Below are positions 6,532 to 7,246 of a DNA stretch of 7,246 nucleotides, piece by piece. Source of the stretch: a virus (taxonomy: Duplodnaviria; Heunggongvirae; Uroviricota; Caudoviricetes); IMG/VR virus record IMGVR_UViG_2690316318_000002; one strand, 5' to 3'. A model generated the notes under the pieces. It had not been told where the DNA came from. It made no database searches and saw only the letters and a list, made by a program, of their open reading frames with translations. Positions within the stretch are counted from its first letter, which is position 1. Every line of letters starts with the position of its first letter. Both the position numbers and the translations under genes were made by a program.

Positions 6532-6974
6532 TTACTTAAGACCTCATCAATAGCCTGATTCATTCGCTGTATGGCAATCTGTGCTGCCAGTTCCTCTGTC
6601 GTATCGAAAGCCGGGCGAATGAACGGATGCGCGGGCATGTTTATCGTTCCCAGCTCCACAAAGCGCCAGTAAAACGCATTTCGGGGATCACTGGCTTTCA
6701 TGCTGTTATCACTGTTTCCGGTTCGCAGGTTCCGTCCGCGAATGTGGACACCCGAGATAATTTCCCCCCGACGCTTTGAACGCTGAGTGAGAACAACCAC
6801 ATTTTTTTTCAGTTTTCCGGTTCGCTCCGGCGCACGTTCAACAACAGCATCCCGCATAACTTCAGCACCGGCACGGGTGGCATCGCGCAGTACCTTATTA
6901 TTTTCTGCCCTGCTGAGCGTCTCCAGATCCCGTGCAATATCCGCCAGACCTGAAAAATCAAGACTGAAATCCAT
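6528..6974 (-). CDS. HK97 gp10-family neck / head-tail joining protein (about 148 aa)
   Basis: MDFSLDFSGLADIARDLETLSRAENNKVLRDATRAGAEVMRDAV...PAHPFIRPAFD... has the length and the PF(I/L)RPA motif I associate with the HK97 gp10 family. I chose the ATG at 6974 because it overlaps the stop of the upstream remnant (TGATG) and has AAGGGG 8 nt upstream; the ORF track begins at the GTG at 6977. Confidence 0.8.
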   Translation of the reverse strand: MDFSLDFSGLADIARDLETLSRAENNKVLRDATRAGAEVMRDAVVERAPERTGKLKKNVVVLTQRSKRRGEIISGVHIRGRNLRTGNSDNSMKASDPRNAFYWRFVELGTINMPAHPFIRPAFDTTEELAAQIAIQRMNQAIDEVLSK

Positions 6975-7138
6975 CACACATTCCCCTTCTGAGAACAGAG
7001 TATCTCAAGCCGGGTGGCACGGGCATCCGGTATCGGCGGACCGTCTATACTCAGAATCGCGCCTTTGAATGCACCAGTCAGCACTTTCAGACATGAAGTT
7101 GCTGTCACATCTCGCCGGAATCTCATCCAGACCCTCAC
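6974..7138 (-). pseudogene. 3' remnant (about 55 codons) of a phage head-tail joining / head-closure-type gene, truncated at its 5' side by the IS2 insertion
   Basis: Hand translation of the minus-strand frame with codons starting at 7138 gives VRVWMRFRRDVTATSCLKVLTGAFKGAILSIDGPPIPDARATRLEILCSQKGNV-stop. This is the only frame without stops between the IS2 end and 6977, and its TGA (6976..6974) overlaps the ATG of the gp10-like gene, the typical coupling of a real upstream gene. The frame runs uninterrupted up to the IS2 boundary at 7139. Confidence 0.55.
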
Positions 7139-7180
7139 TAGACTGGCCCCCTGAATCTCCAGACAACCAGTATCACTTAT
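7139..7180 (+). repeat. IS2 left terminal inverted repeat (IRL), about 41 bp; extent approximate
   Basis: Terminal sequence TAGACTGGCCCCCTGAATCTCCAGACAACC... It is followed by internal palindromes (TCACTTA/TAAGTGA at 7173-7188, ACTAGT...ACTAGT at 7200-7216) that correspond to the known orfA promoter/operator region of IS2. Confidence 0.7.
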
Positions 7181-7229
7181 TTAAGTGATAGTCTTAATAC
7201 TAGTTTTTAGACTAGTCATTGGAGAGCAG

Positions 7230-7246
7230 ATGATTGATGTCTTAGG
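7230..7246 (+). CDS. insC: IS2 transposase orfA (InsC-like), first 5 codons only (MIDVL...)
   Basis: ATG at 7230 preceded by GGAGAG; it reads ATG ATT GAT GTC TTA GG, matching the MIDVLGPEKRRR... start of IS2 OrfA. Confidence 0.75.

Follow-up and report, generated by a model that had tools for sequence, protein, structure and literature searches.

The window, that is the whole analysed stretch of 7,246 nt, ends on its right side inside the left end of the insertion sequence IS2, and the phage sequence that meets this end is the 3' half of a head-closure gene. Very probably, this reflects transposition of IS2 into the stopper gene of a lambdoid prophage from E. coli or a closely related host, a prophage combining an HK97-type head and neck module with a lambda-type tail module. 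IS2 would then lie between codons 58 and 59 of the 112 codons of the gene, its left inverted repeat (IRL) bordering the 3' half and its transposase genes running antisense to the late operon. For annotation, this gives an IS2-disrupted head-closure pseudogene together with a lambda-type tail module that is intact and belongs to an E. coli prophage family of very wide occurrence. The following features were recognised, from the right edge of the window to the left:

7230–7246, + strand: start of orfA (insC), 17 nt, with the ATG at IS position 92 and transcription away from the phage genes
7177–7195 (approximate), + strand: OrfA operator / P_IRL region, with the P_IRL position from PMC3299598
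7139–7180, + strand: IRL (42 bp), with the length from PMC3299598
7139–7246, + strand: left end of IS2 (IS3 family), assigned by the 108-nt identity and the IS2A boundary; the stretch stops inside the element
7134–7138, no strand: predicted copy of the 5-bp target-site duplication, CTCAC, deduced from IS2A and the uninterrupted phage sequence
6974–7138, − strand: 3' remnant of the head-closure / stopper gene, codons 59–112 and the stop, a pseudogene fragment (PF05521 family, WP_001147820-type protein)
6528–6974, − strand: HK97-gp10-like neck / tail-completion protein, 148 aa (PF04883 1.3e-10, PHROG 5)
6187–6531, − strand: gp17-like tail terminator / tail completion protein, 114 aa (PF11367 3.9e-11, PHROG 347/78 'tail terminator')
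6150–6166, − strand: terminator-like hairpin ACCCGCCGCTGGCGGGT followed by a T run, on the sense strand in the spacer before the major tail gene
5422–6126, − strand: major tail tube protein with a C-terminal Ig domain, 234 aa (Pfam; length as in relatives)
4734–5422, − strand: tail assembly chaperone pair G (5036–5422) and T (4734–5024) (PF06222 2.7e-58, PF06223 8.7e-20)
4710–4725, − strand: terminator-like hairpin AACCGCTTCGGCGGTT followed by TTTTT, on the sense strand between T and the tape-measure gene
1449–4694, − strand: tape-measure protein, 1081 aa, intact (relatives 1070–1079 aa)
1–1456 region, − strand: minor tail proteins M (1115–1456) and L (417–1115) (PF05939 7.6e-32, PF05100 6.5e-100; order as in relatives)
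1–411, − strand: first 137 codons of K, cut by the window edge (assigned from the reading frame)

IS2 end and the interrupted gene

Searched against the complete E. coli genomes, positions 7139–7246 were identical to IS2 copies at 108 of 108 nucleotides (E 9e-49), and the matched features were annotated as 'IS3-like element IS2 family transposase'. Such IS2-end matches were present in 4676 of the 5426 genomes, with a median of 3 and a maximum of 41 per genome. The reference for the terminus was the IS2A copy of K-12 MG1655 (mobile element 381260–382590, with insC1 from IS position 92). Alignment with this annotated copy placed IS2 base 1 at window position 7139 and the orfA ATG at 7230, the same IS position as that of insC1 in MG1655; the start of orfA encodes MIDVL, matching the InsC1 translation MIDVLGPEK. 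The terminal left inverted repeat of IS2, starting 5'-TAGACTGGCCCC, is present in the window copy, which has the terminus TAGACTGG... and the position of the orfA start in common with IS2A and differs from it at 4 positions within the terminal 108 nt. Of a complete IS2 the window includes just the leftmost 8%, and the orfA/orfB pair with its −1 frameshift and the right inverted repeat would fall past the window's right edge. The IS2 end seen here is IRL, with orfA directed inward on the + strand, rightward out of the window. The original prediction had placed IS2 here with the same end and the same direction of orfA, and had named a database search of this segment beforehand as a check that could refute it; the search confirmed the match, and the prediction was borne out by both the full identity and the IS2A boundary.

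Two adjacent differences from K-12, TT for AA at 7180–7181 (IS positions 42–43), are situated inside the published OrfA operator region, the operator having been described next to the weak P_IRL promoter of IS2 (PMC3299598). The TT variant is a common allele, and 1038 records were at least 99% identical to 7139–7246. An 18-bp quasi-palindrome at 7170–7187, overlapping the published OrfA operator and the inner end of IRL, reads ATCACTTATTTAAGTGAT in the window IS2 and ATCACTTAAATAAGTGAT in K-12, and these two versions are mutual reverse complements. The difference could have arisen by two substitutions or by a template-switch flip.

Alignment with the intact E. coli F719 prophage and with phage phi467 located the break of the phage homology at 7138/7139. 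Up to this break both were essentially identical to the window, with one mismatch in phi467. Where the window has IS2, similarity is lost and the intact relatives continue from ...CCCTCAC into TGTAGCCTGAGC... (reading CCCTCAC/TGTAGCC across the break), the uninterrupted sequence of the site being CCCTCACTGTAGCC. In the closest relative with an intact site, the F719 prophage, an IS21-family ISEc62 (istA/istB) was observed inside the tape-measure gene (3126–5092 of the compared stretch).

The minus-strand frame from 7138 to 6974 contained no internal stop, and its product matched residues 59–112 of a 112-aa 'phage head closure protein' at 53 of 54 positions (E 1e-39), the sole mismatch being the GTG start codon shown as M. 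When searched alone, the remnant matched PHROG 25 'head closure Hc1' (5.7e-08) and no Pfam family at E ≤ 0.01. The full-length intact relative matched PF05521 Phage_HCP (5.8e-21) and PDB 2KZ4, a 'putative head-tail adaptor' (1.7e-30). PF05521 was formerly named "head-tail joining", and it was a truncated head-tail joining gene that had been proposed to stand next to IS2; the matches of the remnant to PHROG 25 and of the intact allele to PF05521 and 2KZ4 agree with that proposal, and the search of the remnant against phage head-closure proteins, suggested at the same time, returned clear phage homology. To judge from these matches, the broken gene is a head-closure stopper of the SPP1 gp16 / lambda FII type.

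Of the coding sequence of about 110 aa, codons 59–112 alone are present at the locus. The IS2 insertion is intragenic because the intact gene is twice the length of the remnant, and in comparison with the intact allele the cut falls after codon 58 of 112, inside the gene and not between genes. An insertion into an intergenic spacer had been put forward as the alternative, and it is contradicted by the intact gene spanning the break. At the other end of the remnant, the + strand reads CATCA at 6972–6976, which on the minus strand gives TGATG with TGA at 6976–6974 and ATG at 6974–6972. This is the predicted coupling overlap with the HK97-gp10-like gene, and the same 1-nt TGA/ATG overlap is annotated in RefSeq relatives. 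The gp10-like gene is the downstream neighbour of the remnant, and the upstream neighbour in all intact relatives is a gp6-like connector gene.

The frame next to IS2 had been described as stop-free and as abutting the element. The first part stood, but the frame does not end at the junction: it remains open for 14 further codons into IS2, to a TAA at 7183–7181. The first possible start past this TAA is the GTG at 7138, and it would be pure speculation that a 54-aa C-terminal fragment is translated from it. A G-run of IRL (GGGGG at 7148–7152 in the minus-strand reading) was observed about 9 nt upstream of the junction GTG.

Tail genes and their transcription

All eight neck and tail ORFs lying wholly inside the window were intact, with no internal stops and with lengths as in relatives, so that the earlier statement on intact tail ORFs downstream of the insertion holds for each of them. 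The gp10-like gene has a Shine-Dalgarno-like AAGGGGA of its own, and its protein was very widespread in the exact-protein look-up. For the major tail tube protein the Pfam matches PF16460, PF06199 and PF16461 were sub-threshold and the Ig_2 domain was above the cutoff. T is read in the −1 frame (offset from the ORF coordinates), and a slippery run A AAA AAG is present at 5041–5047. The Rfam scan of the window produced no match.

At least 80% of the module was covered in 887 of the 5426 complete E. coli genomes, the best identity being 98.2%, and the tail region as a whole was 95–98% identical in nucleotide sequence to the genomes of deposited phages (phi467, Evi and vB_EcoS phages). The head-closure gene segment can be present in as many as four copies in a single E. 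coli genome. The gene order was constant in every intact relative: Q, lysis, HNH, small and large terminase, portal, protease, capsid and a 62-aa ORF, followed by gp6-like connector, head closure, gp10, gp17, tail tube and G/T, and then by tape measure, M, L, K, I and J. This is the order of a lambdoid late operon. Judged by their identities of 98–100%, IS2 and the phage module are both known elements.

In a consensus scan of the window, promoter-like sites were about as frequent as expected by chance (5 found against 4.8 expected). Terminator-like sites were enriched about threefold (18 found, 6.4 ± 2.4 expected), with 16 of the 18 on the coding strand, and two clean hairpins were situated in intergenic spacers, at 6166–6150 before the major tail gene and at 4725–4710 before the tape-measure gene. 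No promoter reading outward toward the tail genes was found in the IS2 end of the window or in full-length IS2, and neither a consensus promoter nor an intrinsic terminator was detected on either strand of IS2. The window ORFs examined included none that was recognised as a regulator gene.

In lambdoid late transcription, RNA polymerase loaded with Q resists pausing and termination (PMC12360218; bioRxiv 10.1101/2022.03.25.485794), and the pattern of terminators and promoters in the window is the one expected for genes read by such a polymerase from pR'. The tail operon appears to be Q-dependent because it has terminator-like hairpins on the sense strand and no better-than-chance promoter. With terminators of this kind and no promoter of their own, the tail genes would still depend for their expression on Q-loaded polymerase from pR', and the deciding point would be whether this polymerase gets across IS2. 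Because of the same internal terminators, transcription from a chance promoter in or near IS2 would not reach far.

The original prediction had the tail operon cut off from its native late promoter. As the stretch ends 108 bp into IS2, this is not readable from the contig. Moreover, since polymerase carrying Q is resistant to termination and IS2 has no intrinsic terminator, interruption by IS2 does not necessarily isolate the tail genes from transcription. To judge by how Q complexes generally behave, the modified polymerase would probably cross the 1.3 kb of antisense IS2, and continued co-induction of the tail genes with the prophage is more likely than their silencing. Rho-dependent termination in the 1.3 kb of untranslated antisense IS2 RNA could reduce tail expression. 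For lambdoid late operons this would mean that genes downstream of an inserted IS are not necessarily silenced.

Proposed simple insertion and its alternatives

The MG1655 copy IS2A has the 5-bp repeat ATTAC on both sides, and a simple insertion in the window prophage therefore predicts a second CTCAC past the right end of IS2. It would also place the 5' half of the gene about 1.3 kb further on, along with the genes for head, terminase, lysis and Q, and the predicted fusion protein on the far side would consist of 59 aa of head closure and 58 aa of antisense IS2. By analogy and prior expectation, on which this reading draws, a simple insertion seems reasonably probable. The left junction (phage and IS2 IRL) had no matches in the complete E. 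coli genomes, the GTDB species representatives, IMG/VR or the JGI metagenomes, and the predicted right junction (IS2 IRR, CTCAC and phage) had none in the GTDB representatives and the JGI metagenomes. In the exact-protein look-up, no identical record was found for the 54-aa remnant or for the tape-measure protein; a 50-aa version of the remnant with an ATG start was recorded in nine contigs, none of them with IS2. The insertion allele is absent from the collections searched, yet it is not of a new kind.

Alternatively, IS2 would mark the boundary of a deletion or rearrangement that arose by recombination with another IS2 or by a deletion or inversion that IS2 itself brought about next to it. 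Head, terminase and lysis genes would then have been removed or relocated, and what is left would be a tail-only remnant truly cut off from pR'. Several points are compatible with this: a single IS2 end is visible, the predicted right junction was in neither of the two collections, the number of IS2-end matches per E. coli genome offers ample substrate for recombination, and decayed lambdoid prophages that carry IS insertions and deletions are frequent (PMC2669165). However, because the left junction was likewise absent from every collection, nothing specific follows from not finding the right one; the only comparable allele, that of E. coli RM10740, is a simple insertion; and eight intact tail ORFs near-identical to those of sequenced phages fit a young event. 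A rearrangement boundary is on balance unlikely, though it is by a wide distance the least improbable of the alternatives. That the junction is an assembly artefact, with the contig misjoined or extended into a repeat, is extremely improbable. The stretch does stop 108 nt into a multi-copy repeat, as is typical of short-read contigs, and some public contigs likewise break off only a few bases from the position. Nevertheless, the join is exactly at IS2 nucleotide 1, as given by real transposition and unlike a random misjoin, and a contig end inside a repeat represents truncation, not a chimera.

The tail module had further been suggested to be maintained, for example as an F-type (lambda-like, non-contractile) tailocin kept by selection, in which case the knock-out of head closure by IS2 would be a step of domestication. 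The intact tail ORFs and the slippery site of G/T are in line with such a role, and the loss of head closure with late transcription kept would be predicted to yield free tails on induction. Still, no positive evidence for a tailocin was obtained. The intact ORFs are no evidence of maintenance because the module is 95–98% identical to deposited phages and present in 887 of 5426 genomes; this does not form the separate domesticated lineage, distinct from functional phages, by which an F-type tailocin would be recognised, and intactness is equally expected of a recent insertion. An F-type tailocin would also be expected to be a tail cluster devoid of head and packaging genes, with regulators and a lysis cassette of its own. 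Here, the tail genes have no better-than-chance promoter and no regulator gene was found among the ORFs examined, the internal sense-strand terminators tie their expression to the phage's own Q system, and the remainder of K and the genes I and J for the tail tip are outside the window. Selection for a tailocin is accordingly an extremely remote prospect, and it is only slightly less improbable that the arrangement, with free lambda-type tails released on induction through read-through of IS2, has been kept as an F-type tailocin de facto. A recent insertion into a circulating phage lineage is the simplest explanation of the intact tail genes.

With transposition of IS2 into the stopper gene as the preferred explanation, the consequences for the prophage would follow from the role of the protein. 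Once DNA has been packaged, the stopper attaches to the adaptor ring and seals the channel of the portal (PMC9701221). When the head-closure protein is lost, filled capsids would remain unsealed and would not be joined to tails, and no infectious virions would be formed unless a co-resident lambdoid prophage supplied the protein in trans. As loss of the stopper should block both head sealing and tail attachment, the prophage would be defective for autonomous virion production. In E. coli such a defect is a relative one, given the up to four copies of this gene segment per genome and the complementation known from co-resident lambdoid prophages (PMC2669165). A defective prophage was what the original prediction had proposed, and with the head-closure gene cut after codon 58 a self-sufficient lytic cycle has very probably been lost.

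Several public draft and metagenome contigs were observed to end within a few bases of the equivalent of about 7127–7141, and these carry no IS sequence. The allele of the 5' half was found in only 219 genomes, compared with about 890 having the 3' side. Because of these contig ends and these genome counts, a mosaic (recombination) boundary that breaks assemblies is suggested inside the head-closure gene.

Comparison with other insertions and known systems

In E. coli RM10740 (NZ_CP043821.1:1315597-1317286), an ISEc48-like element of the IS3 family was found in the same head-closure gene and in the same orientation, in a prophage of the same family as that of the window. As with IS2 here, its IRL faces the 3' half of the gene, the IRL-side junction being 6 bp from that of IS2; the insertion as a whole lies about 6–16 bp from the IS2 site, at the equivalent of window 7118–7132. 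The element is a different IS, 1335 bp in length (10793–12127 of the compared stretch) and with an IRL of TGAGCTGG..., and it has a 15-bp target duplication in contrast to the 5 bp expected for IS2. Both IS ends are visible in RM10740, showing a simple insertion in a prophage that is otherwise complete from Q to J, and the Q, lysis, terminase, portal and capsid genes are still upstream of the plain 1.3-kb insertion. Target duplications in the IS3 family are usually 3–5 bp. All four of the ISEc48-like copies examined were flanked by 15–16-bp direct repeats (GTCTGGATGAGATTC, CTCGCTCATAACAGA, AAGTTAAATTTTCTC and (G)GGTTCGGTGGTGTAC), and RM10740 carries at least 22 ISEc48-like copies.

Located 6 bp away from the point of insertion, the phage sequence GAATCTCATCCAGAC (7118–7132) is similar to positions 15–26 of the IS2 IRL (GAATCTCCAGAC, 7153–7164) in the same orientation. 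The pattern GAATCT-N0-4-CCAGAC, a motif defined post hoc, matched these two places only in the window and none of 200 shuffles. Such an IR-like sequence could make the gene a preferred target of IS2-group elements, and if this were true, target preference would explain two independent insertions within about 6–16 bp, in the window and in RM10740. An insertion hotspot was considered and rejected: among the 219 complete genomes with this allele only RM10740 is interrupted near the site, and its 15-bp repeat is the normal duplication of that IS. As the evidence consists of two events and a post-hoc motif, it is too weak for a hotspot to be claimed.

In comparison with the PF05521 / PHROG 25 stoppers (SPP1 gp16 type, PDB 2KZ4), the remnant corresponds to residues 59–112 of a 112-aa member and adjoins the gp10-like gene, the canonical place of the gene in intact relatives being between the gp6-like connector and gp10-like genes, but the locus in the window is without the N-terminal 58 residues and represents a fragment, not a functional member.

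The insertion adds one more case of IS elements disabling prophage morphogenesis genes, and disruption of this kind is a textbook phenomenon. IS-damaged lambdoid prophages, such as those of E. coli O157 Sakai, are common, and co-resident prophages can complement their morphogenetic defects (PMC2669165). The Sakai prophages differ from the window in that other IS elements and other genes are involved, and the insertion in the window is known here from its sequence. The likeness between them is an IS in a morphogenesis gene of a lambdoid prophage, and in Sakai such formally defective prophages are inducible and can become packaged with the help of co-resident ones (PMC2669165).
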